A DNA stretch of 64,000 nucleotides, taken from the IMG/VR virus record IMGVR_UViG_3300045988_130114, positions 1 through 64,000 of that record; one strand, given 5' to 3'. Of this stretch, positions 3,030 through 56,501 are shown piece after piece. Both the position numbers and the translations under genes were made by a program. The notes beneath the pieces are model-generated. The model was not told the origin of the DNA and did no database searches. It saw nothing but the letters and a program-made list of their open reading frames with translations. Each line of letters starts with the position of its first letter. The stretch's first letter is position 1. Source of the stretch: a virus.

Positions 3030-3433
3030 CATACGAAGAAATGAAAGCTAAATATTGCGGAACCAATATTCGCAGAAAGCCAAAAAGTGAAGAACATAAT
3101 ATACAAGCATCTTGTGTTAAATGGTTTCGCAACCAATACCCCCAATTAAGAAACATCTTATTTGCTGTTCCTAACGCAGCAAGAAGAAGTGCTAGAAACG
3201 GGGAATACATGAAAGAAGAAGGGATGCTTTCGGGAGTTGCAGATCTGATACTTCTTAAAAGTAATCGTTTCTACGGTGCTTTGTGTATAGAAATGAAAAA
3301 GCCAGGTGAGTACCAAAGACCGGTACAAAAAGAATGGCAAAAGGAATGCGAGGCGGCTGGAAACAAATATGTCGTTGTCCGGTCTTTGGAGGAATTTATA
3401 GAAGTTGTGAATGGTTACTTAGCAGAAATATAA
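3026..3433 (+). CDS. VRR-NUC domain nuclease
   Basis: PD-(D/E)xK signature GVADLILL...ALCIEMKKPG..QKEW, about 135 aa, typical VRR-NUC size; 4-nt overlap with the upstream gene. Confidence 0.85.
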   Translation: MTYEEMKAKYCGTNIRRKPKSEEHNIQASCVKWFRNQYPQLRNILFAVPNAARRSARNGEYMKEEGMLSGVADLILLKSNRFYGALCIEMKKPGEYQRPVQKEWQKECEAAGNKYVVVRSLEEFIEVVNGYLAEI

Positions 3434-3438
3434 ATATT

Positions 3439-4092
3439 ATGGAAACGGAATTATTTAAAAACAAGACAATGAGTTCGCTTGAGATTGCCGAACTTACAAG
3501 CAAACAACACGCCCATGTTATGCGTGATATTCGCAATCTATTATCACAAGGAGTAGCCGAATCCAATTTTGGATTGGCGGAATATTCGGATAATCAAGGG
3601 AAACCAAGACCATGTTTCAATCTCACCAAGAAAGGTTGTCTGATCCTCGCATCCGGCTACGACGCAGTACTCCGTGAAAAAATTATTGATCGCTGGGAAT
3701 CCCTCGAAACAGGTAAGGCTGAACCTATGGCTAAACAGTCTCTTACTCCTTCCGAGCTTATTCTCCAACTTGCGCAATTCAACGTTGAGAATGAACGTAA
3801 GATGAAGGCTTTGGAAAGCAAGCAGGAACAAATGCAAGCGGAGATTGAGGAAATCAAGCAGCGTACTACCACGGACCTGCACCAATCCACAATCGTAGCC
3901 TACATATCAAGAAACAGTATCAAACTGGATGTCTCACGCTACGGAGCGATGGGACGGAAAGCGTCAGCTCTCTGCAAGAAACGCGGTGTTGAGCCGACAA
4001 AAATCCATGATGTCCGTTGGGGAACAGTGAAAGTTTACCCCGATGAGATACTTGATGTTGTTTTTGGAATGGGGATTTCAAATATAAACTAA
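3439..4092 (+). CDS. Rha-family phage regulatory protein
   Basis: ATG 3439. MSSLEIAELTSKQHAHVMRDIRNLL matches the Phage_pRha N-terminal motif. The C-terminal module is shared with 8511-8915. Confidence 0.75.
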   Translation: METELFKNKTMSSLEIAELTSKQHAHVMRDIRNLLSQGVAESNFGLAEYSDNQGKPRPCFNLTKKGCLILASGYDAVLREKIIDRWESLETGKAEPMAKQSLTPSELILQLAQFNVENERKMKALESKQEQMQAEIEEIKQRTTTDLHQSTIVAYISRNSIKLDVSRYGAMGRKASALCKKRGVEPTKIHDVRWGTVKVYPDEILDVVFGMGISNIN

Positions 4093-4103
4093 TAAATAGA
4101 AAA

Positions 4104-4364
4104 ATGAAGAAATACGAATATAGAACATTTCTACTTCGTCCTATGGACGATGGTTATAGGCATAATTATCAAGAATACACTACTGATAAACTCAATGTTT
4201 TAGGTAGCCAAGGTTGGGAAGTTGTATCAGAACTATCGTCAAGTTATGATGGCATAATGCTATTGTTGAAAAAAGAAATATTGGATGAAAGAATAGAATC
4301 GAATATCGTTCCTCGTTCCTTTTCTGGGTTTCATAAGTCTTCTGATAATGATGAAACCGAATGA
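4104..4364 (+). CDS. DUF4177-like small protein
   Basis: KYEYRTF...LNVLGSQGWEVVS...LLLKKE pattern. Confidence 0.4.
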   Translation: MKKYEYRTFLLRPMDDGYRHNYQEYTTDKLNVLGSQGWEVVSELSSSYDGIMLLLKKEILDERIESNIVPRSFSGFHKSSDNDETE

Positions 4365-4510
4365 GTTGCAAGAATGGCATAAGCTATCAGAAAAGCTTGT
4401 TGCATTTACGAGTAATTGTAGTGAAGATATAAAACCTTACATCGTTGGACAATTGCAGGCTTTGTTAGAAATATTGTCTGCGCAAATTGATTTTGAAAAA
4501 TAATCATATC

Positions 4511-5269
4511 ATGAGAAAGAAAGCAGAAATTAAAAAGTACGATGCTAACGTATTAGATACGATTGGCAAGGACGGTGATCTGTTGTCACTTACTGATTTG
4601 TGGAAAATTGCAGGCTCACCAAAAAGCAAAAATCCCAACGATTGGCTTAGACAAGATATTGCATCTGAATTAGTTAATACGGTATCCGGGATTTTAAATA
4701 CGGTTTCAAACCGTATTATAAAAACAAAGCGCGGTAAATTAGGTGGTTCGTATGCCCATAGACAAATAGCTCTTGCTTATGCAAAATATCTTGACCCTGC
4801 GCTTCATGTATTAGTCAATGAGGTTTTCTTTCAAAGAATAGAAGAAGAAAAGAACCCCGATTTGATAGGTCAACGATATATTAAAGCTTATAAGAAAAGA
4901 GGCAAAGACAACAAATGGATTTCTGAAAGACTAAAATCAATAGATTCACGTAACGAATTTACCAAGACGCTTGCCGCTCATGGAGTGACAGGAGAAGGTT
5001 ACAGAAATTGCACAAACGCAATATACGAGCCCTTGTACGGTGGTACGGCATCGGTCGTTCGTGAAAAGAAAGGTTTAATCAAAGGTCAAAGCGTTCGTGA
5101 TAATATGTCTCGTGTAGAACTTGCCGCTGTTGGACTTGCTGAAGCGCTCGCTTCCGATGAAATAGACAAAAAAGATATACGAGGTAATGGTAAGTGTGAA
5201 GTTGCTAGCAGAAGGGCATCACGCTCTGTTGCAAATGCTCTGATAGATCATAAGAAATATATTATATGA
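4511..5269 (+). CDS. KilA-N domain DNA-binding protein
   Basis: ATG 4511. LSLTDLWKIAGSP..NDWLRQD...GGSYAHRQIALAYAKYLDPALHVLV fits the KilA-N fold motif. Confidence 0.65.
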   Translation: MRKKAEIKKYDANVLDTIGKDGDLLSLTDLWKIAGSPKSKNPNDWLRQDIASELVNTVSGILNTVSNRIIKTKRGKLGGSYAHRQIALAYAKYLDPALHVLVNEVFFQRIEEEKNPDLIGQRYIKAYKKRGKDNKWISERLKSIDSRNEFTKTLAAHGVTGEGYRNCTNAIYEPLYGGTASVVREKKGLIKGQSVRDNMSRVELAAVGLAEALASDEIDKKDIRGNGKCEVASRRASRSVANALIDHKKYII

Positions 5270-5406
5270 TTATCATCCACAAAACCATGTACGAATATTA
5301 AACTAATAATAAGCCTGTGTCGATTGGCTCAACTCCTATTATCGGCAAATCGTTCTTTGACATTTTGTTTTCAGCTTTTAATCTTCCTTATATTGCATAA
5401 CTGCAA

Positions 5407-5437
5407 TAAAAAAGCGTCACTCTACATGACGCTTTTC
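5407..5437. terminator. bidirectional intrinsic terminator between convergent operons
   Basis: 7-bp stem AGCGTCA/TGACGCT (5413-5419 / 5427-5433) flanked by an A-run on the left and a T-run on the right. Confidence 0.55.
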
Positions 5438-5463
5438 TATTACAAATTTAGTATTATTGATTA

Positions 5464-5568
5464 TCAAAGGCTGTTAAGCCATTTTTTACCAGACTTGGTA
5501 TTAAGCCAAATAGCTATTCCAGCCCCTACGGCGCTAGTAAACATGAATATTATCGTTAATCCGTTCAT
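5464..5568 (-). CDS. 34-aa single-TM micro-protein (paralogue B)
   Basis: Hand translation MNGLTIIFMFTSAVGAGIAIWLNTKSGKKWLNSL*; below the ORF-track size cut-off; paralogous to 5575-5679. Confidence 0.45.
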   Translation of the reverse strand: MNGLTIIFMFTSAVGAGIAIWLNTKSGKKWLNSL

Positions 5569-5574
5569 AATATT

Positions 5575-5679
5575 CTATAAATTCTTGATCCATTTCTTCC
5601 CGGATGGAGTTTCGGTATAAATCAAGAATAGCACCGCTATAACAGCCAACACAACAAATACAAATATTCCTGCATTCAT
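5575..5679 (-). CDS. 34-aa single-TM micro-protein (paralogue A)
   Basis: Hand translation MNAGIFVFVVLAVIAVLFLIYTETPSGKKWIKNL*; starts 7 nt after the stop of 5686-5931. Confidence 0.45.
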   Translation of the reverse strand: MNAGIFVFVVLAVIAVLFLIYTETPSGKKWIKNL

Positions 5680-5685
5680 ATCAAT

Positions 5686-5931
5686 TCATTTTAATAAGTT
5701 GTTTCCAATTTTCGCCCATGAATAAGCTAATATACAACCAACAAGTAACATGATTAAAAGTTTTAAGTTTATAACGCTACCTTGAAAAAATAGCACCATA
5801 CCACCAAGAACCAAAGCTGTATATGTTAATTGTGAAAGATTAAAGAAATACCCTGCAAGCTTTTCCCGCCTGGTCTTGTCTTTCTCCTTTCCTTCTCTTT
5901 TTTCTTCTTGTCTTTCGCTCCAGCTACCCAT
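5686..5931 (-). CDS. small membrane protein (charged N-terminus, two TM helices)
   Basis: ORF track; EEKREGKEKDKTRREK followed by two hydrophobic helices. Confidence 0.55.
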   Translation of the reverse strand: MGSWSERQEEKREGKEKDKTRREKLAGYFFNLSQLTYTALVLGGMVLFFQGSVINLKLLIMLLVGCILAYSWAKIGNNLLK

Positions 5932-6052
5932 GTTATACTGTTATATGTGTATCACAATGCAAAGTTAGCAATTCCATTTGAGAATTAAGTCACAAAATAG
6001 TTAAAAGAAAATGTTAGGTGTTGGTTGTATAGTCACTTTTAAAAATTATTAT

Positions 6053-6060
6053 TATATTTG
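6053..6060 (+). promoter_or_regulatory. Bacteroides-type -7 box TATATTTG
   Basis: Matches TAnnTTTG in the divergent intergenic region upstream of the Bro-N gene. Confidence 0.35.
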
Positions 6061-6209
6061 CCATGCGTTGGGTTGTACTTATTAAAATTAGAATTAATCA
6101 GAGGATTAAGATATAGAAAGCTGTGTAGGTCACAACCCCCTGCATGGCTTTCGCCTTTTTATCTCCGCATGAAGAAGTGCGGTACGTCCTCGAACGAAAA
6201 GACATTATT

Positions 6210-6911
6210 ATGGACAACATTCAGATTTTTAAGAATGAATCGTTTGGTGAAGTGCGAGTAGCCGGAACAAGTGAAGAACCATTATTCTGCTTGGCAGATG
6301 TTTGTAAAGTGCTTGAGTTAGGAAATCCCAGTCAAGTAAAAACAAGACTTTGTGGTGAGGTCATTACTAATGAGGTCATCCCGGACTCTCTTGGTAGACA
6401 ACAAGAAATGATTTTTATTAATGAAGACGGTTTGTATGACGTAATACTTGATAGTCGTAAGCCACAGGCTAAAACTTTCCGTAAATGGGTAACTAGTGAA
6501 ATCCTTCCTTCAATCCGCAAGCATGGCATATATGCTACCGACAATGTTATTGACCAGATATTGAATAATCCGGATTTCGGCATTGAACTTCTCACTAAGC
6601 TAAAAGAAGAACGGTCGGCACGCATTGAAGCAGAGAAACAGGTAGCAGTACTAACTCATGTCAATAAAACCTATACATGTACGGAAGTTGCTAAAGAATT
6701 GGGGCTTAAATCGGCAATTGAACTTAACAACCGTTTAAAAGAACTTGGCGTACAATACAAAGTTAATCAGACGTGGGTGCCATATACTAAATACGCTACT
6801 CTTGGCTGGTTTGATATAAAGCAAGAGGTTGCTGACAATGGGCATATTATCTACCATAGAAAGATTACCGGAATTGGTAGACAAGGTATCATTAATCTTA
6901 TTAATTCTTAG
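6210..6911 (+). CDS. BRO-N / KilAC (ANT) antirepressor
   Basis: ATG 6210. IQIFKNESFGEVRV...PLFCLADVCKVLEL..(Bro-N) and QAKTFRKWVTSEILPSIRKHGIY, then a KilAC-like C-terminus. Confidence 0.8.
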   Translation: MDNIQIFKNESFGEVRVAGTSEEPLFCLADVCKVLELGNPSQVKTRLCGEVITNEVIPDSLGRQQEMIFINEDGLYDVILDSRKPQAKTFRKWVTSEILPSIRKHGIYATDNVIDQILNNPDFGIELLTKLKEERSARIEAEKQVAVLTHVNKTYTCTEVAKELGLKSAIELNNRLKELGVQYKVNQTWVPYTKYATLGWFDIKQEVADNGHIIYHRKITGIGRQGIINLINS

Positions 6912-6949: not shown

Positions 6950-7279
6950 TCATCTATACATCGCGGTGCAGCTTATAAATAAGGCTATAATAGACACGAT
7001 AAGAGAAAGTATCCCGGCTATTACTCCGATAACAGTCCAGTTGATAGGGTTTCGTAAATTGGGATTCTCACAAAGGTAGTGTTTTCCTTCATCGGTGGTT
7101 TTGGCATCTTCTACTGCTCCACCTTCCAGATATGCGGCTTTTACTAGTCCTTTCCTTTCAAGTGATCGTACGGACAAGTTGTAGACGTGCAAAGGAAATA
7201 CACAAGGGCACTGACCGTTGAACTTATCAACGATCCTAAGTGTCTCTTTTTCCTCCTTAGTGAGTTTTATTCGTTTCAT
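6950..7279 (-). CDS. tail-anchored membrane protein, last gene of the repressor operon
   Basis: C-terminal TM INWTVIGVIAGILSLIVSIIALFI; 4-nt overlap with the upstream gene. Confidence 0.55.
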   Translation of the reverse strand: MKRIKLTKEEKETLRIVDKFNGQCPCVFPLHVYNLSVRSLERKGLVKAAYLEGGAVEDAKTTDEGKHYLCENPNLRNPINWTVIGVIAGILSLIVSIIALFISCTAMYR

Positions 7280-7701
7280 AGATTTACTTTTAATTCTATT
7301 CCTGCTAAATCAAAATATATGTTCTGAAGTTGATTCAGATATTCTATTTGCTTAAAAACTCTGTTAGAGCGCATTACTCCATAGAAGTTAGTACGAGTAT
7401 TATATAATATCCAGAAATCTTCTATAGTCAATAATCGTTGTTCTTTTATTTGGAATTCATAATACTCGACATTAAATCCGCACTTTAACAGCAATCCTTC
7501 TGTGAGAGAAATAGGTTCTACCGTAGAAATAGGAACTTCGCCGTAAAAAGTCCCACCATTTACATGACATTCCAGGTACAAGGAATTAAGACTAATGGCA
7601 TGTACTTTGCATATAGTACCTGCAGGTATTTCAACTCCTACGTACTGGTAATCTTTCGATAGCTTTACATAGTTGCCTAACCTTAGTTCTTTTGTATCCA
7701 T
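7276..7701 (-). CDS. hypothetical soluble protein, second gene of the repressor operon
   Basis: ORF track; starts 14 nt downstream of the repressor stop; no motif recognised. Confidence 0.55.
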   Translation of the reverse strand: MDTKELRLGNYVKLSKDYQYVGVEIPAGTICKVHAISLNSLYLECHVNGGTFYGEVPISTVEPISLTEGLLLKCGFNVEYYEFQIKEQRLLTIEDFWILYNTRTNFYGVMRSNRVFKQIEYLNQLQNIYFDLAGIELKVNL

Positions 7702-7715
7702 AGCTTGCTATTGTC

Positions 7716-8000
7716 CTATCTGGTTTCTGGCTTTAGTTCAACATTCACGCTAACAGGGAACTCGTTTCCGCAGTGTGGGCATTTTACAGAATGGGCGTTT
7801 GAGGGAAGCTGCACTTCTTCTGGGGACGCGAATAGCTGCCACATGGGGACGTTGAGGGCGGTGGCTATTTTTTCAAGTGTAGCAGTTGTCAATGATTCAG
7901 CTGCAACCATTTGTCTAACAGCAGATAGGCTTACATTCATTTTATCTGCCAATTCTTGTTGTGTGTAATGTTTCTCTTTTAAAAGTTCCTTTATTCTCAT
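7716..8000 (-). CDS. XRE-family HTH repressor (CI/Cro-like) with C-terminal CxxC zinc-ribbon-like tail
   Basis: YTQQELADKMNVSLSAVRQMV..ATLEKIATALNVP is a classic HTH_3 motif; CPHCGNEF at the C-terminus; divergent from the 8172 operon. Confidence 0.8.
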   Translation of the reverse strand: MRIKELLKEKHYTQQELADKMNVSLSAVRQMVAAESLTTATLEKIATALNVPMWQLFASPEEVQLPSNAHSVKCPHCGNEFPVSVNVELKPETR

Positions 8001-17781: not shown

Positions 17782-18627
17782 ATGAAGATGCAATCTAAGA
17801 TAGATTATTCCATAGCCTTACTTCGTAAATGCGAACAGATGGCACTTGATTATGACCCGGAGGATGGCTTTTACTTAGCGTTCTCCGGTGGCAAGGATAG
17901 CCAAGTCCTTTATCACCTTGCGAAGATGGCAGGAGTAAAATTTAAGGCTCACATGAACCTTACGAGCATCGATCCACCCGAAGTTATCCGCTTTGTAAAA
18001 CGGAACTACCCGGATGTGGAATTGATTAAACCAAAGATGTCTATCTATGATATGGCTTTAAAAAAACACTTATTACCTACAAGAACAATCCGTTGGTGTT
18101 GCGCTGAATATAAAGAGATGTCCGGTGCTGGCAAGGTTACCTTGATTGGCATTAGAAAAGCAGAAAGCGTCCGGCGCTCTAAGCGTGAAGAGATTGAAAT
18201 AAGCGGTCACAAATTTAGCGGCAACTTCGACCAATTCTCTGAACACAAAGAAAAGATGGTTACTTGCGTGGGAGGAAAGGATAAGATACTTGTTTCTCCG
18301 ATAATTCACTGGACTGATAGGGACGTATGGCAGTTTTTGAATGGGAATAGCATAGAGCATTGCTCGTTGTATGATGAAGGCTATAAGCGCATCGGATGTA
18401 TTCTCTGCCCAATGTCTAACTATAAGCAGAAGTTAAAAGATTATCAGCGCTTCCCCCATGTGAAACGTAAATGGATTCAGACCATACAAAAGTTGATTGA
18501 TGCCGAATATGTCAACCACAACTTTACCGATGCAGAGTTTGGCTTTTATTGGTGGATAAGCGATAAAGGTTTTGACCAATATTATGCAGACGAAGTACTG
18601 CAACAGAAAATAGAGTTTAACGTATAA
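17782..18627 (+). CDS. PAPS-reductase/DndC-like PP-loop protein (intact paralogue)
   Basis: AFSGGKDSQ, RWCCAEYK, GIRKAESVRR, SPIIHWTDRDVWQFL, YKRIGCILCP. Confidence 0.85.
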   Translation: MKMQSKIDYSIALLRKCEQMALDYDPEDGFYLAFSGGKDSQVLYHLAKMAGVKFKAHMNLTSIDPPEVIRFVKRNYPDVELIKPKMSIYDMALKKHLLPTRTIRWCCAEYKEMSGAGKVTLIGIRKAESVRRSKREEIEISGHKFSGNFDQFSEHKEKMVTCVGGKDKILVSPIIHWTDRDVWQFLNGNSIEHCSLYDEGYKRIGCILCPMSNYKQKLKDYQRFPHVKRKWIQTIQKLIDAEYVNHNFTDAEFGFYWWISDKGFDQYYADEVLQQKIEFNV

Positions 18628-21894: not shown

Positions 21895-23196
21895 ATGTTC
21901 CAAGGAACGACACCACCTGAAGTAAAACTGCTCCTTCAAGATATAATGAAAGGCGTAGAAAAGAAAGATGTTTTTATCGGATGTTCCGGTAATTTCACGA
22001 CCGACAAAATTATGTCCAACATGGGATATACTGTACATTCCAATGATGTAAGCCTATATTCTAAGCTAATTTCTGATCTGCTGCTTGACACAAATACAGA
22101 TATTGAAGTTGTAAATCCTGAATTACGTCTGGTTTTTGATACTTGGAAAGATACAAGATATAAAAATCTTGTTCAGGTAATGTTTGCCATGAGAGTATCA
22201 GGCTTTCATCAAAGAAAGAATGATTATCAGGAGGAAATGTTCAATTCGTTTATAGAGCAGGCTGACATTTATTATCACAATACCATATCGAAATTAGAAA
22301 AGGGTGCTTTGAATTTTAATATAAGCAGTTTCTTTTATGGCGATTTTTTTGACTTCCTAAAAAGTAAAAAAGGTAAGGGGATAGGTATTGCTTTTCCTCC
22401 CACTTATAAAGGAGGATATGAGAAGATGTTTAGCTATGTAGAAGATAGTTTTAGATATGTTCATGCTCCCTATAATGTATTTGACCCCAAAGAAGGTGGG
22501 GTGATGTTTAAATGTCTTCTTGAGAATGATGAAAACATCATCTATTCTGATAGATATTTCCAGGAAATAAACGACTTCCTTGTTGGTAAGATAAACTTGG
22601 GGCCTGGTAAGAATCCGATATACACTTATTCTAGTGTAAAGCGGGATAAGCATTATTACATTGAACGTGATAAAAATATAAAGCCATCATGTATTCATAT
22701 TTTGCCAATGGATTATGAATTTACAGATAGCACAGAAATATCAGCAAAGATATGCCCAGTTAGTGATGTGAACTACTATAAAGCATTTTACATGGCAAAT
22801 AAGGTTAACTATACAACTGGTGGGGACTTGGGATTGGTATTCATGGCTGATGGAAAAGCGTTCGGTTTTTCTTCTTTTAGCAAAAAACTTTCTACTCTTG
22901 AGCAGATTTTTATGCGAAGCGATTTTGTTGTAAACTCAAATACTCAGAGATTGAGTAAATTATTGATCATGCTTGTTAAGTCTCATAATGTAAGAATGCT
23001 GATTGCCCGAAAAATGGCTAACTACTACGATGGAGTGAAGACTACCGTGTACACAACAAGCCCAATTTCAATGAAATATAGAGGAGTATTTGATTTAGAA
23101 CGCCGAGATGAAGGCAAGCTAATGTATTCTGCTAATTTTTTAGATGATTCATTAAAGGATTTATATAGATTATGGTTGAAAAAATACAAGAAGTGA
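21895..23196 (+). CDS. methyltransferase-like protein (weak call)
   Basis: 433 aa; VFIGCSGNF (motif I-like) and AFPPTYKGGYE (DPPY-like); overlaps the ParB-like gene. Confidence 0.4.
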   Translation: MFQGTTPPEVKLLLQDIMKGVEKKDVFIGCSGNFTTDKIMSNMGYTVHSNDVSLYSKLISDLLLDTNTDIEVVNPELRLVFDTWKDTRYKNLVQVMFAMRVSGFHQRKNDYQEEMFNSFIEQADIYYHNTISKLEKGALNFNISSFFYGDFFDFLKSKKGKGIGIAFPPTYKGGYEKMFSYVEDSFRYVHAPYNVFDPKEGGVMFKCLLENDENIIYSDRYFQEINDFLVGKINLGPGKNPIYTYSSVKRDKHYYIERDKNIKPSCIHILPMDYEFTDSTEISAKICPVSDVNYYKAFYMANKVNYTTGGDLGLVFMADGKAFGFSSFSKKLSTLEQIFMRSDFVVNSNTQRLSKLLIMLVKSHNVRMLIARKMANYYDGVKTTVYTTSPISMKYRGVFDLERRDEGKLMYSANFLDDSLKDLYRLWLKKYKK

Positions 23197-29255: not shown

Positions 29256-29274
29256 GTCACTTTTATTATATTTG
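29256..29274 (+). promoter_or_regulatory. late promoter motif GTCACTTTTATTATATTTG
   Basis: One of four copies in an identical 19-nt register, ending in the Bacteroides -7 box TAnnTTTG; AAAAGTCGCA box at 29238-29247. Confidence 0.55.
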
Positions 29275-33170: not shown

Positions 33171-33189
33171 GTCACTTTTATTACCTTTG
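33171..33189 (+). promoter_or_regulatory. late promoter motif GTCACTTTTATTACCTTTG
   Basis: Identical register to 29256; forms the palindrome AAAAGTGGCA-N8-TGTCACTTTT with 33152-33161. Confidence 0.55.
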
Positions 33190-37399: not shown

Positions 37400-37951
37400 A
37401 TGGCAGTAATCGGATGGGGTAAACCCCGAATTTTCGTAAAAGACTTGGATGCTTCTTCGCCCAAATGGGAAGAGCTTCCTACACCCGTGGAAGATTCCAC
37501 ACAGTTGACAACAACAAAAGGCGACAAACAAGAAGCCAAAATTGAAGGTGGAGAAAATGAAGATGTCAAGTATGGTAAAAACACCTATGCCCTTGTACTC
37601 AACATACGTGCAGCAAAAGGCCGCAAAAGACCTATCAACGACAGTGATGGCGTAGTTGCTCACAATTATGCTGTTGCACTACAACCGGAAGATCCCGAAG
37701 TTCCTGGATTTTGTATGGAAAAGACAACAGTGTCAGTTGAAGATACGTTTACTAGTGCAGATGGTGGTGTGTGGGCATATACATTTGACGCTTTAAAATA
37801 TGCCGCTGAAAAGAAACAAGTTCAATGGGGTAAAATTATTGTTACTCCTACAACAGGATCATCTATTACAAAAATAGAGTGTGACCCGGACGACGAAGAT
37901 GGTGATGGAGATAAGTTTGAAGTCGCCCCCAATTCCGGCTTAGGCGGATAA
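37400..37951 (+). CDS. major tail protein (putative)
   Basis: Synteny: last gene before the chaperone / tape-measure block; followed by a strong hairpin at 37979-38001. Confidence 0.5.
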   Translation: MAVIGWGKPRIFVKDLDASSPKWEELPTPVEDSTQLTTTKGDKQEAKIEGGENEDVKYGKNTYALVLNIRAAKGRKRPINDSDGVVAHNYAVALQPEDPEVPGFCMEKTTVSVEDTFTSADGGVWAYTFDALKYAAEKKQVQWGKIIVTPTTGSSITKIECDPDDEDGDGDKFEVAPNSGLGG

Positions 37952-38868: not shown

Positions 38869-38977
38869 ATACGACAAATAGAACAAAAGCTAGAAATAAA
38901 AGGTAAAAAAATCACGAGGGTTATACAAAAACTCCCGTGATTTATCGGTGAAATAGAACAATTATATAATCATCTAA

Positions 38978-39850
38978 TTAGGAAACTATTTCTCCAGTAT
39001 CCTTATTTAATATCAGATGGTATTTCTTTTTTTCTCCTATTTTAGTAGTGGCTTCAATGTCTAATATTACGTTATCTCCATCTAATGAATATGTGGATTT
39101 GTTGACTCTTATCTCTTCATCGGTGATGGGGACCTGCCAAATTAGATATTTATCATATCTATACATTGAAATGTCAACACACACAACCATATTGTCATAG
39201 ATGTATACCATATTATTGTAAGATATAGGTATGTAATTATTCCTTTCAATTTCTTTAACCCATCTTTCAGCGCCTGGATCATTATTCCCAATCGTCTGCT
39301 TTAAATCACTATCCAATACTCCAATTTCATAAATTCCTGTTCTTGCAGTTTTATAAATGGCAATGTATTCTCCATACCAATCTGCTATTGCTTCCGGATA
39401 GAAGATCGTTTCTTCAAAACCAGAATAATATTCTTTGTCAAAATATTCTTTTTCAACAACCTTCCCATCTTTTATTTTCAAGATAAATTTATGTGGGTGA
39501 TAAGCTATATCTGCGTATAAACTTACCAATATATAGAGATAATCATCCTTTTTCAAGGCACTTTGAAGGAAACACCCTTTGACTATGTATTCTCTCTTAT
39601 CTCCAAACCCAAGATCATGGGTATAATTTTCTGCTTTATCTTTGATGGTAAACACCTTGTTCCCTGATTCATCAATAGCCTCTATATAGTAATCTCCTTC
39701 AAAGATATAAGCTTGTAGTTTTAGATCATCTATCGGGATAGCACTATCGATTTGGTATTTTGGAAGATCTGGTTCATCTATAGGACTTTCATTTGAACTA
39801 CAACTTGTTAATAGAATTATTGCTATGATAAAAAATGAAATCTTCTTCAT
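38978..39850 (-). CDS. lipoprotein
   Basis: Signal peptide plus lipobox MKKISFFIIAIILLTSC; counter-oriented and AT-rich. Confidence 0.7.
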   Translation of the reverse strand: MKKISFFIIAIILLTSCSSNESPIDEPDLPKYQIDSAIPIDDLKLQAYIFEGDYYIEAIDESGNKVFTIKDKAENYTHDLGFGDKREYIVKGCFLQSALKKDDYLYILVSLYADIAYHPHKFILKIKDGKVVEKEYFDKEYYSGFEETIFYPEAIADWYGEYIAIYKTARTGIYEIGVLDSDLKQTIGNNDPGAERWVKEIERNNYIPISYNNMVYIYDNMVVCVDISMYRYDKYLIWQVPITDEEIRVNKSTYSLDGDNVILDIEATTKIGEKKKYHLILNKDTGEIVS

Positions 39851-39863
39851 AATTTGTTGGTTA

Positions 39864-40985
39864 TTATTCTCTCATTGCTATTTTAAGCGATTCTTCAAGT
39901 CTATCCGCATATTTGAATATGTCATCTATGCTATCAATTTGAATCCAGTCGCAACTTTTGTAGTTATCTACTGGTATTCCTATTTGCTTCTTCCTAGTTC
40001 CAATAGAAATACGACATATCCAATACCATTGGCTGTTGTCTAAGCTTATAACGAAGTAACTTTTATAGTCTGTATAGGTGATTCGTGAAGCATCTACATT
40101 ACGTCTAAGTATGCTTCTCACAATGTTATAAGCATCCATTTCCTCTTGTGTAGTGACTATCCCTGCTTCCTTGTCCATATAAACTACTCCTTCAGGTAGT
40201 TTGTTTTCTGCATTTTCTTTGGGGAGATTAGCTAAATTACTAGAAAAATTAGTTGTGTCTTCGACCTGTTCGTCATTTTTCATTGCTGTATTAAGCCTTT
40301 CAGCTATGATATCATTTATTACAATAGACATTGACTTTTTTACAAGTGGGGTAAACATTTCAACTACCTTTTGTGTGATTTGCCCAGTTGTATATATTTG
40401 TTTTGCAAAGAATCTAACAAAATCAGATGTAGGAGATTGTATTTCTTTGTTGAAAATTTCCTTTATTTCCGTTGTGTATTTTAATTCATTTGCTGTGCTA
40501 AGAACATTGTCTTCATTGTAATAAGATTTGTGGAACTTTTTTAGTTGTTCTATGTCTGCATCAGATAGATCTAGCATATTTACAACTAAGAATGGCCTTT
40601 CATCCATGATATTAACCTTCTCCAAATCAGTATAGAAACGGTATTCTATGCCATTGGTGAGAACTCCAAAGCGAGACTTAGAAGCTACGAAATATTTTTG
40701 TAGTTGGGTGTCATGCAGATTCAAGTCCTGCTTGCAATGCTTACACTCTATAAGAAGTATCGGGTTTTCGTCCTTCATTATAGCATAGTCAATCTTTTCT
40801 CCCTTTTTTCTGATTAAGTCACAGTCCATTTCCGGAACAACTTCGAAAGGATTAAAGACGTCATACCCTAAAGAAGCTATCAATGGCATTATGAAAGCAT
40901 TTTTTGTGGCTTCTTCTGTAGATATGCTATCTTTTTGTTTTTTTATGCGGTCTGACAGTTGTAAAATTTGATCCTTGAAATCCAT
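39864..40985 (-). CDS. HsdR-N-type (type I restriction R-subunit N-terminal domain) PD-(D/E)xK nuclease-like protein
   Basis: TEEATKNAFIMPLIASLGYDVF...KIDYAIMKDENPILLIECK....FGVLTNGIEYRFY. Confidence 0.75.
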   Translation of the reverse strand: MDFKDQILQLSDRIKKQKDSISTEEATKNAFIMPLIASLGYDVFNPFEVVPEMDCDLIRKKGEKIDYAIMKDENPILLIECKHCKQDLNLHDTQLQKYFVASKSRFGVLTNGIEYRFYTDLEKVNIMDERPFLVVNMLDLSDADIEQLKKFHKSYYNEDNVLSTANELKYTTEIKEIFNKEIQSPTSDFVRFFAKQIYTTGQITQKVVEMFTPLVKKSMSIVINDIIAERLNTAMKNDEQVEDTTNFSSNLANLPKENAENKLPEGVVYMDKEAGIVTTQEEMDAYNIVRSILRRNVDASRITYTDYKSYFVISLDNSQWYWICRISIGTRKKQIGIPVDNYKSCDWIQIDSIDDIFKYADRLEESLKIAMRE

Positions 40986-41104: not shown

Positions 41105-41123
41105 GTCATTTTTGTTATCTTTG
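41105..41123 (+). promoter_or_regulatory. late promoter motif GTCATTTTTGTTATCTTTG
   Basis: Identical 19-nt register; restarts rightward transcription after the counter-oriented cassette. Confidence 0.55.
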
Positions 41124-41128
41124 TATTG

Positions 41129-41146
41129 CCGTGTAATGTTGCACGG
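41129..41146 (+). promoter_or_regulatory. leader hairpin CCGTG-N8-CACGG(AAC)
   Basis: Direct reading. Confidence 0.45.
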
Positions 41147-41169: not shown

Positions 41170-44100
41170 ATGGCTGGATTACACTTTGATATCACTGGCG
41201 ATAACTCCAACTTCATACGCAAATTACATGAATGTGAGAATGGAGTAAGAAACACTTCTAAACAAATAGAACAAAGTGGGTTAAGTATTGAAGATCTATT
41301 TAACCGTATGACTAAAGCTGCTGCTGCTTTTGGAGCGGGATTTACAGCGAAAGAGTTGATTTCAAATATTGCTCAAGTTCGCGGTGAGTTTCAACAATTG
41401 GAAGTTGCATTTAAGACAATGCTTGGCAGTGAGGATAAGGCGAATGCCCTCATGCAGCAATTAGTAAAAACGGCTGCTACCACTCCTTTTGACCTTCAAG
41501 GCGTAGCAAATGGAGCTAAACAACTCCTTGCTTATGGGGAAAATGTAGAAAATGTCAATGACGATTTGATACGTTTGGGTAATATTGCTGCTGGTTTATC
41601 CCAACCTCTTGGAGATATCGTTTATCTTTATGGTACTACAATGACCCAAGGTCGTTTATATACACAAGACCTCAATCAGTTCACTGGTCGTGGTATACCT
41701 ATGATTCGCGAACTAGCAAAGCAATTTAATGTTGCGGAAAATAAAGTTAAGGGACTTGTTGAAGCCGGAAAGGTTGGTTTCCCGGAAGTTCAAAAGGTTA
41801 TCATGTCACTTACTAATGAGGGCGGAACGTTCTACAACCTTATGCAAGAACAGTCAAAGACGATTACTGGACAAATCTCTAACATAGAAGATGCTATTGC
41901 TACCATGTTCAACGAGATAGGCAAGGCTAACGAGGGCATCATTAACGATGCTTTATCTGGAGTTTCCTACCTAGTTGAAAACTATGAGAAAGTGGGAAGA
42001 GTACTGTTAGAAATCGTAGGAACCTATGGAGCATATCGCACCGCCCTAATGGTTACAAGTTCTTTGCAAGCTTTACAAGCATCAGGGATTATGGCTTTGA
42101 CAGCAAAAGAAGCTGCTCACTATGGATGGTTAGTCTTAACTAAAAAGGCTCAAGATGCTTTGAATTTATCAATGCTAAAGAACCCGTATGTATTAGCTGC
42201 AGCTGCTGTTGCTGGATTGGCTTATGGCATTTATAAACTTGCTACAGCAGAGACTGAAACAGAAAGAGCCGTTCGCAAAACAAACGAAGCACTTGAAGCA
42301 CAAAAGAATCATTATGAAAGTATAAAGAACAAAGCAAGTGAGCTATCAAATACTTTAAGTAATGAATCCAAATCCACAGAAGAACGTTTCATTGCATATC
42401 GCCAATTACAGCGTTTAATGCCTGAAGTATTCCAAAATATGGATTGGGAAACTGCAAAACGAAAGACAAATGCGGAGCTTATTAAACTTGAGACCGATGA
42501 ACTTTTAAGGCGGCAACGTATTGGCTTAAAGACTAAGGTTGTAATGTCTCAACAAAAAATACAAGGTCTGGAAAACAGTATAATTAAAACTGATAATAGA
42601 GGAGGGTATACGGGGGCATTGAAAGAAGATTTATCTGCTGCAAGAAAAGAACTTGAAATTTATACTAAAGCTTTAGATGATTTTGAGAAAGCAGACGAAC
42701 AAGCTAAAAAGGATGCTAACAAGCCTACTGTCTACAATAAGGAATATTGGGAAGGGAAGAAGAAAGAAGCTGAAGATGCCCGAAATACTTTGGACGTTTC
42801 TAAAAAGAATTCCGATGAATGGAATAAATATACTAAACAAATACAAGAAGCGCAAAAACAAATAGATAAGTATTCGGACTCTAAGACAATCAATAATTAT
42901 AACTCCATCATAGACCAGCAAAAGAAAATCTCCGAACTATTAGACAAGCAAACAACCGAAAGGAAGCGCAAGGAACAAGATCTGGAGAATCAACTTACCC
43001 AGTCTCGTATTGACGCTATGGCAGAGGGAGAAGCCAAGATTCGTGCACAACGTGAATTGGATAACAAGAAGGAGATACAAGACTTAGAACGTCAACGGGA
43101 AGATTATATCCGAACGGAGATCGAGCTTCAGCGAAAGGCTTTTGATGAACAGGAAAATTTGCGGGCGAAGCAGACTAAGTACTATAAGAAGAGAACGTTT
43201 GATCCGTCTACAGTGAAAGTAGATACGGCCGCTTTTGATAAAATTTTGAATAATACTATTCTACGACAAGATATTTATCCTTATCAGGAAGAAATGAAAT
43301 ACTGGAATGAATATCTTAAAGAATATGGTACATTTCAACAAAAAAAAGCTGCCATAAACGAAGAATATAACTTTAAAATCAGTGAAGCTACCACCAAGGG
43401 CGCTAAGAAGTCCTTGGAAAAAGAGAAAGAAAATAAACTGAAGGAAGTTAGCTTTGAAGAACTAAAATCATCTATCAATTTTGCAAACATATTCGGAAAC
43501 CTTGATGCTCAGTCTACCGAGGCACTGGTTAAGATGCGTGATAACCTGAAAGAGGTTATAAATAAAGCAGCTAAAGATATAAAACCTACTGATCTTAAAG
43601 CGTTGCAAGATGCCTTCAAAGAAATTGATCTAAAAATAACAGTACGTAATCCCTTGGGAGAACTGAAAAATAGTGCAGATAATTATCGTAATGCTACATC
43701 TGCGGTAATCAAGGCTCAAGAGGATTTAAATACTGTTATTCAGGGAGGAGAGGTAATAACTAAAGTATATACCGATGAGAACGGAAAATTAACTACTAGA
43801 TTACTGACTCTTACCCAAGCAGAAAATAACTTGGCCGCTGCTCAATCTAACAGACAACAAGCCTTGTCTAAGTTAACTCAAGCGGCAAATTCTATCGGGC
43901 AAAAAGGTATGGAGGTTGTAAATGCTGGCAATGACGTTGTTGGAATGCTTGAAAACTTTGGGGTAAAGGTTCCAGAAGCCATAAGTAAGACTTTGGATGG
44001 TATAGGGCAGGTAATGAGTGGGCTGGAACGAATAGACTTAACCAAACCTTTTAGTGCTATCACAGGTGCAGTTAGCGTTTTGGCAGGCGTTGGGAATACT

Positions 44101-45724: not shown

Positions 45725-45743
45725 GTCATTTTTTGTATTTTTG
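45725..45743 (+). promoter_or_regulatory. late promoter motif GTCATTTTTTGTATTTTTG
   Basis: Identical 19-nt register. Confidence 0.5.
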
Positions 45744-56048: not shown

Positions 56049-56501
56049 TTATACACTATTATTTATGTTCTTCCCTTTTTGCTTTTTATCATACTCTATG
56101 CATTTGCGGAGAATAAGCCCAAAAATGGCAAAAGGAGTGTAAAGAATCGCAGAAGCTTGAAGAAACGTAGTTAAAGCATGTTCATATCCTAGGATGTAAT
56201 CTGAAGGAGATATAAGTAATTTAGACGATGTCACTAATATGGGAAGAATTAGTATAAAGGCTTCTAGTTTGTATCTTCTTTTTGATATAGAAGAACATAG
56301 ACATAACCATATAAAAGAAAAGTAAATGGATAATATAGAAGAAGTTGCCGTAAATATGATTTGCAAATATACATCGAGAGATTTAAACTCTGGTATATAT
56401 AAATACAAAATAGAAAAGCATAGTGGCAGTTGTATGCAAAATCCTGTAAATACATTCTTTTGTTCAGCGTTATAGCTTTTTATTAATTCTGAAATATCCA
56501 T
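56049..56501 (-). CDS. counter-oriented polytopic membrane protein
   Basis: ORF track; about 4 TM; very AT-rich; inserted between the holin and the endolysin. Confidence 0.55.
   Translation of the reverse strand: MDISELIKSYNAEQKNVFTGFCIQLPLCFSILYLYIPEFKSLDVYLQIIFTATSSILSIYFSFIWLCLCSSISKRRYKLEAFILILPILVTSSKLLISPSDYILGYEHALTTFLQASAILYTPFAIFGLILRKCIEYDKKQKGKNINNSV

Follow-up and report, generated by a model that had tools for sequence, protein, structure and literature searches.

A leftward accessory operon in the tail-gene block of a temperate Bacteroides/Phocaeicola phage carries a long-resident candidate defense nuclease gene and an exchangeable exported-protein gene

We analyzed a 64,000-nucleotide stretch of viral DNA (IMG/VR record IMGVR_UViG_3300045988_130114, positions 1 to 64,000; hereafter the window), which belongs to a temperate Bacteroides/Phocaeicola siphophage, and focused on a two-gene cassette on the minus strand inside its tail-gene block. 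The cassette consists of a nuclease-like gene (39864-40985; 373 amino acids [aa]) followed, 13 bp after its stop codon, by a lipoprotein gene (38978-39850; 290 aa), and both open reading frames (ORFs) were confirmed exactly as delimited in a preliminary description of this DNA. That description had singled out the two genes as the only minus-strand genes of the 29-55 kb structural region. Indeed, every other minus-strand ORF of at least 90 aa in this region is nested within a longer plus-strand ORF, and the pair thus represents the only credible counter-oriented genes in the structural block. The cassette was further said to separate a tail chaperone gene from the tape measure gene. The right-hand neighbor, starting with the ATG at 41170, encodes a tape measure protein (Pfam TMP_3, 1e-24; phrog_9959, 3e-214), while the left-hand neighbor encodes a 238-aa protein that matches phrog_11996 (function unknown) and no Pfam family, and is called a chaperone here by position only. 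The cassette is also AT-rich, as had been estimated, with a G+C content of 33.1% compared to 37.9% for the window (3rd percentile among 2-kb windows), but this has no sharp edge: the chaperone-position gene is itself at 33.9%, so that composition does not mark the left border of the cassette.

The cassette appears to be equipped with its own transcription signals. The housekeeping promoters of Bacteroidota have the -33/-7 consensus TTTG-N19-TAcaTTTG, and a putative promoter of this kind (TTTG-N19-TACATTTG) is found on the minus strand at 41045-41015, ending about 29 bp upstream of the nuclease ATG. A search for the promoter pattern gave five matches in the window against two expected, and only the one at 41045-41015 sits just upstream of a same-strand ORF start. 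Its -33 and -7 elements are kept in all nine representative relatives, including the distant loci L049 and L051. At the other end of the cassette, a predicted intrinsic terminator (38904-38943, minus strand) consists of a hairpin (38943-38909) followed by U7, and is placed between the lipoprotein gene and the convergent chaperone-position gene. The fold has an energy of -13.3 kcal/mol (z, -2.78). The position of this hairpin is conserved across the nine representative relatives and substitutions in the stem mostly preserve pairing; in L049 and L051, the most distant relatives, another hairpin takes its place. Co-transcription of the two genes is probable and is supported by relatives of the L030 type, in which the start codon of the second gene overlaps the nuclease stop codon (ATGA).

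A repeated phage motif followed by a hairpin (41105-41146, plus strand; hairpin at 41129-41146) precedes the tape measure gene. The preliminary description had taken the motif at 41105-41123 for a copy of a late promoter, and its repetition is confirmed: GTCAyTTTTnTTAynTTTG occurs in four plus-strand copies in the window (29256-29274, 33171-33189, 41105-41123, and 45725-45743) against 0.05 expected. The three other copies lie 50 to 155 bp upstream of the next long plus-strand ORF, like the copy at 41105 for the tape measure gene, and about 5 to 25 nt after each copy there is a short conserved hairpin (CGTATGA..TACG-like), with a long structural ORF of the plus strand beyond it. The copy at 41105 presumably restarts rightward (late) transcription into the tape measure gene; the motif may act as a late promoter specific to the phage, with a stem-loop in the 5' leader, or else as a regulator or antiterminator site. 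All four copies contain a -7-like TAnnTTTG, but none has the -33 TTTG at the consensus spacing, indicating that the cassette promoter is of a different class from the repeated motif.

The assignment of the 373-aa protein to the HsdR N-terminal nuclease family, made from its residues in the preliminary description, is borne out by profile searches. Residues 24 to 123 match Pfam HSDR_N (1.6e-14; 54.7 bits, cut-off 25.1) and HSDR_N_2 (3e-9; 37.2 bits, cut-off 25), and residues 1 to 370 match positions 2 to 354 of the 357 positions of phrog_4225, labeled "endonuclease" (E value, 5.4e-128). In 93 homologues (35 to 60% identity), residues E24, E52, D66, E80, K82, Q94, L95, Y98, T110, G112, and D128 are invariant, and they include the complete HsdR-type signature D...ExK...QxxxY (D66, E80, K82, Q94, and Y98). 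The AlphaFold model (pLDDT, 91.8) comprises a nuclease domain of the HsdR-N PD-(D/E)xK type (residues ~1 to 150, in agreement with Pfam), a helical domain with one very long helix (158 to 253), a disordered linker (254 to 273), and a compact alpha/beta C-terminal domain (275 to 373). Structure prediction, which had been suggested as a check, agrees with this assignment: the best Foldseek matches of the N-terminal domain in the Protein Data Bank (PDB) are the nuclease domains of DrdV, BpuSI, Vibrio vulnificus HsdR, and EcoR124I HsdR, with probabilities of 0.98 to 1.0 for 7lvv_D, 3s1s, and 3h1t and E values of only 6e-3 to 4e-2. The C-terminal domain weakly matches the C-terminal DNA-binding domain of T4 MotA (Foldseek probability, 0.44). 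Ten isolated C-terminal domains scanned against Pfam matched no family, a profile of this domain found no relative among PDB sequences, and searches of PDB sequences with the whole protein and its family profile gave nothing meaningful.

The protein does not contain an SF2 helicase or translocase, as neither ResIII nor Helicase_C is matched and the model shows three domains only. There is no linked hsdM or hsdS, the flanking genes being the chaperone-position, lipoprotein, and tape measure genes, and no methyltransferase gene is adjacent to the nuclease gene in the window, in the relatives, or in 78 Bacteroidota genomes. A gene encoding a Dam-like/GNAT protein is located 17 kb away in the window. 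Membership in the Type I HsdR subunits was rejected on architecture and gene context.

Viral contigs were scanned with the chaperone-position protein, which yielded 48 related loci (48 to 100% identity), and five local proteins were compared to these by tblastn; 46 of the loci extend far enough to be informative. In 45 of the 46, the nuclease gene occupies this junction in an unchanged orientation, with 55 to 98% identity. Its identity tracks that of the flanks: loci with a chaperone at 95 to 99% identity have a nuclease at about 95%, a chaperone at 93% comes with a nuclease at about 88%, and the values in the most distant loci are 48% and 55 to 56%, respectively. In one group of relatives, the nuclease has diverged further than the flanks (81% compared to 98% for the chaperone), suggesting that alleles have been exchanged by recombination. 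The remaining locus, L050, represents an empty site: only 62 bp separate the stop codon of the chaperone gene from the ATG of the tape measure gene. The conserved order of tail genes thus does not include the cassette, and this supports the view that the cassette is dispensable for tail assembly. The ratio of nonsynonymous to synonymous substitution rates (dN/dS) is 0.08 to 0.10 for the nuclease gene and 0.05 to 0.075 for the chaperone gene. On these sequence comparisons, the nuclease gene is an old resident of the lineage under purifying selection (dN/dS of about 0.1). This does not agree with the recent acquisition of the cassette as a whole, as first proposed, since the nuclease is found at the junction even where the chaperone is only 48% identical. 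The preliminary description had also regarded conservation in all relatives as part of tail assembly as speaking against an acquired cassette; the nuclease gene comes close to such conservation, yet nothing links it to tail assembly.

Between distant relatives, the helical domain retains 32 to 34% identity, the C-terminal domain 49 to 50%, and the nuclease domain 75 to 77%. A hypervariable C-terminal domain within the lineage was rejected on these values, the helical domain diverging fastest, the C-terminal domain being intermediate, and the nuclease domain being the most conserved.

The lipobox reported for the second protein is confirmed. Its N terminus, MKKISFFIIAIILLTSC, is a signal peptide with the lipobox LLTSC at residues 13 to 17, of which Cys17 is invariant in 31 homologues. 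The Pfam LPAM_1 match is below threshold (15.2 compared to 20 bits), and one homologue is named [quoted passage not shown] by NCBI. The lipoprotein export signal of Bacteroidota consists of acidic residues just after the cysteine. The residues following Cys17 (SSNESPIDEPD) are acidic but do not form a clean surface-export consensus. The AlphaFold model (pLDDT, 86.7) is all-beta and forms a beta-propeller, for which Foldseek returned generic beta-propeller matches with TM-scores of 0.25 to 0.40. No Pfam, PHROG, or PADLOC family was matched in profile searches, and the search of PDB sequences gave nothing meaningful. The lipoprotein family comprises 57 clusters, and every organism-named member is from Bacteroides.

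This lipoprotein is present in only three of the relatives compared (100%, 68%, and 68% identity), with a dN/dS of 0.18 between the 68%-identical alleles, and an 86%-identical copy is found at the same junction in B. fragilis chromosomes. Every other locus harbors a different co-oriented ORF in the same slot, that is, between the nuclease stop codon and the terminator. Including the window's lipoprotein, the slot families number at least eight; they are mutually unrelated, range from 87 to 291 aa, and all start with a signal peptide or a lipobox. Several of the other slot proteins carry C-S-K-D-D, C-S-N-D-D, or C-S-S-D-N-D from the cysteine onward, and none of the seven alternative slot proteins has a Pfam or PHROG function. 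Because the slot always holds exported proteins, its function is probably exerted at the envelope, as receptor masking, exclusion, or a host-fitness trait. In the loci from B. fragilis and related chromosomes (L053-L055), an extra 161-aa gene lies between the lipoprotein and chaperone genes (locus coordinates 6050-6535, structural-gene strand, no Pfam match), indicating that the junction has accepted further insertions. Furthermore, a 51%-identical homologue of the lipoprotein is found in a different phage, in a repressor-side operon downstream of an HTH_3 gene and opposite Rha/ANT genes. No HsdR-N gene is located near this homologue, and the lipoprotein thus moves independently of the nuclease. 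Taken together, the comparisons support the lipoprotein as a horizontally exchanged moron, and the slot resembles a classical moron site. The description of the cassette as a horizontally acquired moron therefore holds for the exchanged lipoprotein slot but only weakly for the nuclease gene, which is resident in nearly all relatives.

We then place the nuclease within its family. A search of 1.84 billion representative proteins (clusters at 50% identity) found 4958 relatives, with at least 1078 clusters at 50% identity having E values of 1e-30 or below; most are 340 to 390 aa long and align end to end. The phrog_4225 family is large and catalogued but functionally uncharacterized; NCBI names proteins of this type [quoted passage not shown] Some members keep residues 1 to 245 and carry other C-terminal domains, of which at least five kinds were seen. 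An N-terminal TerD domain is fused to a complete HsdR-N protein in 4 of the 10 longer members scanned, and one longer member has a sub-threshold match to SeqA_C, which binds hemimethylated GATC, at its C terminus (P0251, P0264, P0274, P0279, and P0213 comprise the four fusions and the one match). These fusions hint at a link to stress, defense, or methylation state. P0180 and P0181 are 66 to 67% identical over residues 1 to 245 and then end in low-complexity sequence unlike the family C terminus; they are probably frameshifted or decaying copies.

In eight contexts from temperate phages of other phyla, a repressor-type (HTH/CI) gene, identified by annotation or by Pfam, precedes the family gene on the same strand. 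The named phages with such a repressor-side context are Fusobacterium FNU_1P, Acetoanaerobium ANDSL2_ph1, Streptococcus IPP25, Corynebacterium Juicebox, and Clostridium CWou-2020a, and three metagenomic prophage contigs show the same repressor-then-nuclease arrangement. In five of these contexts, that strand later carries an annotated integrase or recombinase, and an ImmA-type metalloprotease gene is nearby in some. The part of a prophage that lysogens transcribe is the operon running from repressor to integrase, where exclusion and defense genes are classically found. In Lacticaseibacillus phage P7.1, the family gene is within a co-oriented block of unannotated genes, and in Porphyromonas gingivalis phages it follows hicAB, a few genes before the tape measure gene. 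Non-prophage settings occur as well, one homologue adjoining KAP-NTPase and AAA_21 genes and another lying near a PIN-domain gene. In a survey of 78 Bacteroidota genome loci, 632 neighboring ORFs were clustered. No neighbor family was present in more than 6 of the 78 loci, the commonest being a tyrosine integrase, and none of the recurrent neighbors is a Type I M or S subunit or a linked methyltransferase. The downstream gene is a co-oriented lipoprotein gene in only 8 of 77 loci. A conserved partner gene was rejected on the basis of this clustering. Judged from its settings, the nuclease gene stands alone, on DNA that is mobile or variable.

Both products can be compared with known systems. 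The N-terminal 150 residues of the nuclease match the endonuclease domains of Type I HsdR and Type IIG/IIL enzymes (PF04313/PF13588; 3h1t, 2w00, 3s1s [BpuSI], and 7lvv [DrdV]) in both the D...ExK...QxxxY signature and the superposition of the model. Unlike in these enzymes, no SF2 translocase, methyltransferase, or specificity module is found in or beside the protein, and the nuclease domain leads into a helical domain and an alpha/beta domain of about 100 aa without Pfam or PDB sequence relatives. Type IV modification-dependent enzymes (the PvuRts1I/AbaSI, MspJI, and Mrr families) combine a nuclease with a reader domain. The window's nuclease is similar to them in being solitary, without a cognate methyltransferase, in its two-module layout, and in its location on a mobile element, but no SRA, YTH, or Mrr-N reader was detected and its subtype is HsdR-N rather than Mrr_cat or Vsr-like. 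Further counterparts are the phrog_4225 members of P. gingivalis phages, FNU_1P, IPP25/Javan316, and Juicebox, which are full-length, of the same length, 33 to 46% identical, and all from temperate phages. In these other phages the gene is part of a repressor/integrase operon or lies beside HicAB, whereas in the window's lineage it heads a mini-operon in the tail module. No experimentally shown function was found in the literature for these members. Classical prophage morons and exclusion lipoproteins include lambda bor and lom, T5 Llp, phi80 Cor, and Ltp of S. thermophilus TP-J34. The cassette shares with them an apparently autonomous promoter and terminator, counter-orientation in the late operon, variable presence or replacement among close relatives, and an exported or lipidated product. 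It differs from them in that the lipoprotein has no sequence similarity (no PHROG or Pfam match) and a beta-propeller body, and in that a conserved nuclease gene anchors the slot, which unrelated exported proteins have refilled at least eight times.

We favor, with slightly better than even confidence, the interpretation that the cassette is a self-contained accessory (moron-type) leftward operon in which a fixed candidate defense nuclease is joined by an independent, exchangeable envelope cargo. The solid parts of this interpretation are the organization of the locus as an autonomous leftward operon, the long residence of the nuclease gene, and the exchangeability of the exported cargo gene, whereas expression in lysogens, nuclease activity, and both defense roles are predicted from sequence. 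The operon would be transcribed leftward from the host-type promoter at 41045-41015 and would stop at the terminator at 38943-38904. The nuclease would be made in lysogens and act on the nucleic acid of incoming elements, as a solitary restriction enzyme without a methyltransferase that is either modification-dependent (Type IV-like) or infection-triggered (Abi-like), its C-terminal domain supplying recognition of the target or trigger. The beta-propeller lipoprotein would act independently at the envelope, by receptor masking (superinfection exclusion) or another form of lysogenic conversion. The invariant catalytic residues, the lack of a methyltransferase, the modular C termini, the TerD fusions, and the placement in lysogeny operons together point to a solitary restriction-like defense nuclease, and this evidence fits modification-dependent and infection-triggered mechanisms alike, without distinguishing them.

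Several points weigh against this interpretation. Promoter and terminator activity are predicted from consensus matches only, and the G+C content of the cassette is close to that of the chaperone-position gene. The C-terminal domain has no recognizable reader fold, which makes a Type IV-like mechanism speculative. A solitary active nuclease needs a means to spare self DNA, and none was identified. PADLOC (v2.0.0), suggested beforehand as a check, matched no defense system with either protein: the nuclease gave only a weak domain-level match to mad2 (5.5e-5) over the nuclease core, and the 93 aligned family members gave scattered weak domain-level matches, mostly to Type IIG/methyltransferase (restriction-modification) models. 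No paper on the family was found in the literature on HSDR_N/phrog_4225 prophage nucleases. Finally, near-universal retention and purifying selection like that of a structural gene fit a role in the phage cycle equally well. Such a role, in lytic growth or induction, would have the nuclease degrade host or competitor DNA, process recombination intermediates, or assist excision or replication. It would agree with the invariant catalytic residues and with the generic label "endonuclease" given by annotators, in addition to the presence of the gene in 45 of 46 relatives. However, the gene is counter-oriented to the late operon and is preceded by a host-type promoter unlike the repeated late motif, one relative lacks it at the junction, and elsewhere the family is found in the repressor-integrase operon of temperate phages rather than among replication and recombination genes, as well as in non-prophage chromosomal settings. 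We therefore regard a phage-cycle role as unlikely, though it is the most probable of the alternatives.

The protein could instead be inactive as a nuclease in vivo and serve as a DNA-binding regulator, or as an anti-defense decoy that mimics the HsdR N terminus against host restriction complexes. It does resemble the HsdR N-terminal domain without the motor domains, its long helical domain could mediate protein-protein contacts, and neutralizing host Type I systems would benefit the prophage. The strict invariance of D, ExK, and QxxxY in 93 diverse members is nevertheless hard to explain without catalysis, and one would look for an anti-restriction gene among the early genes rather than in the lysogeny operon, making this a quite improbable account. 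Slightly further down the scale, and in our judgment very improbable, is the co-functional defense or exclusion pair that the preliminary description had suggested, with an envelope sensor or blocker acting in concert with a nuclease effector inside the cell. The two genes are adjacent and probably co-transcribed, and the gene after the nuclease encodes an exported protein in every relative (eight of eight unrelated families). This exceeds the chance expectation if no more than about one third of host proteins are exported. On the other hand, the partner has been replaced by unrelated folds while the nuclease stays 81 to 98% identical, the lipoprotein family occurs in another phage without the nuclease, the Bacteroidota survey revealed neither a frequent lipoprotein neighbor nor any neighbor family in more than six loci, and in phages of other phyla the nuclease gene has repressor, ImmA-type protease, and integrase genes as neighbors. 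Both proteins belong to known kinds, a catalogued nuclease family and a prophage moron lipoprotein, and their pairing is not a system. The least credible alternative takes the nuclease gene for a selfish, free-standing homing endonuclease that entered between two conserved tail genes. This would account for the position of the gene, for the empty site in one relative, and for nuclease alleles that are more divergent than their flanks (81% compared to 98% for the chaperone), which suggests recombination. It was rejected on distribution, since the gene is near-universal rather than sporadic in the lineage; moreover, the nuclease diverges along with the backbone, down to 55% identity, has the opposite orientation, its own promoter, terminator, and passenger gene, and belongs to a family that elsewhere occupies lysogeny operons and various chromosomal sites rather than the interior of conserved genes or gene pairs.

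Returning to the accessory operon with a candidate defense nuclease, a broader proposal can be made only tentatively, and we hold it with clearly less confidence: phrog_4225 might represent a widespread, undescribed single-gene anti-phage or anti-plasmid system in lysogen-expressed operons of at least four phyla, which in the Bacteroides/Phocaeicola lineage would also anchor a refilled slot for exported cargo and thereby give both intracellular and envelope protection. The family is attractive as a single-gene defense candidate, being large, placed in lysogeny operons, and absent from PADLOC-DB v2.0.0, the one defense catalogue searched. Close prophage relatives are common in genomes of Bacteroides thetaiotaomicron, B. 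fragilis, B. faecis, and Phocaeicola dorei and in gut metagenomes (hundreds of contigs), and the role of the cassette, whatever it is, is therefore widespread in the human gut. The exported-protein slot represents a natural experiment on the surface functions that temperate Bacteroides phages give to their hosts and bears on phage-host range, superinfection exclusion, and strain fitness in the gut. Should both the defense and the envelope role prove wrong, the locus is an ordinary moron. What deserves attention is the placement of phrog_4225 in lysogeny operons without a described function, together with a refilled slot in a common gut lineage.

Other features of the window are of interest for the phage itself. 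A nucleotide search with 36-46 kb of the window against 50,697 GenBank phage records returned no match, indicating that the phage is not a deposited isolate; in the same collection, the nearest relatives of its capsid protein are from unannotated gut contigs and Cellulophaga phages. The 183-aa protein encoded at 37400-37951, ahead of the chaperone-position gene, belongs to phrog_17745 (function unknown) and is taken as the tail tube protein by position only. A probable immunity region is formed by 6950-8000 (minus strand) and 3334-6911 (plus strand). Its minus-strand part begins with an HTH_3 (Cro/CI-type) gene (7716-8000) followed by two more minus-strand genes of unknown function, and its plus-strand part carries antirepressor-type genes (Phage_pRha, 3334-4092; KilA-N, 4487-5269; Bro-N+ANT, 6144-6911). 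No integrase was found among the window ORFs scanned.

A 433-aa protein (21895-23196, plus strand) matches the Pfam families "Phage DNA Adenine Methylase-like domain 1" (6e-42) and "Phage GNAT-like domain" (3e-30), and a 281-aa protein (17782-18627, plus strand) matches PAPS_reduct (2e-23); together, these two may form a phage DNA-modification module. A further counter-oriented gene follows the tail genes at 56049-56501 (minus strand). Its 150-aa product, which matches no Pfam family, has several hydrophobic segments that resemble membrane spans; the gene is a further moron candidate and might code for a membrane protein of the exclusion or Abi type. At the right end of the phage region (57645-61824, plus strand), a gene for an 845-aa protein without a Pfam match precedes one for a 546-aa protein with a polysaccharide deacetylase domain (4e-9), and these may encode a host-surface-modifying or lysis-related enzyme.

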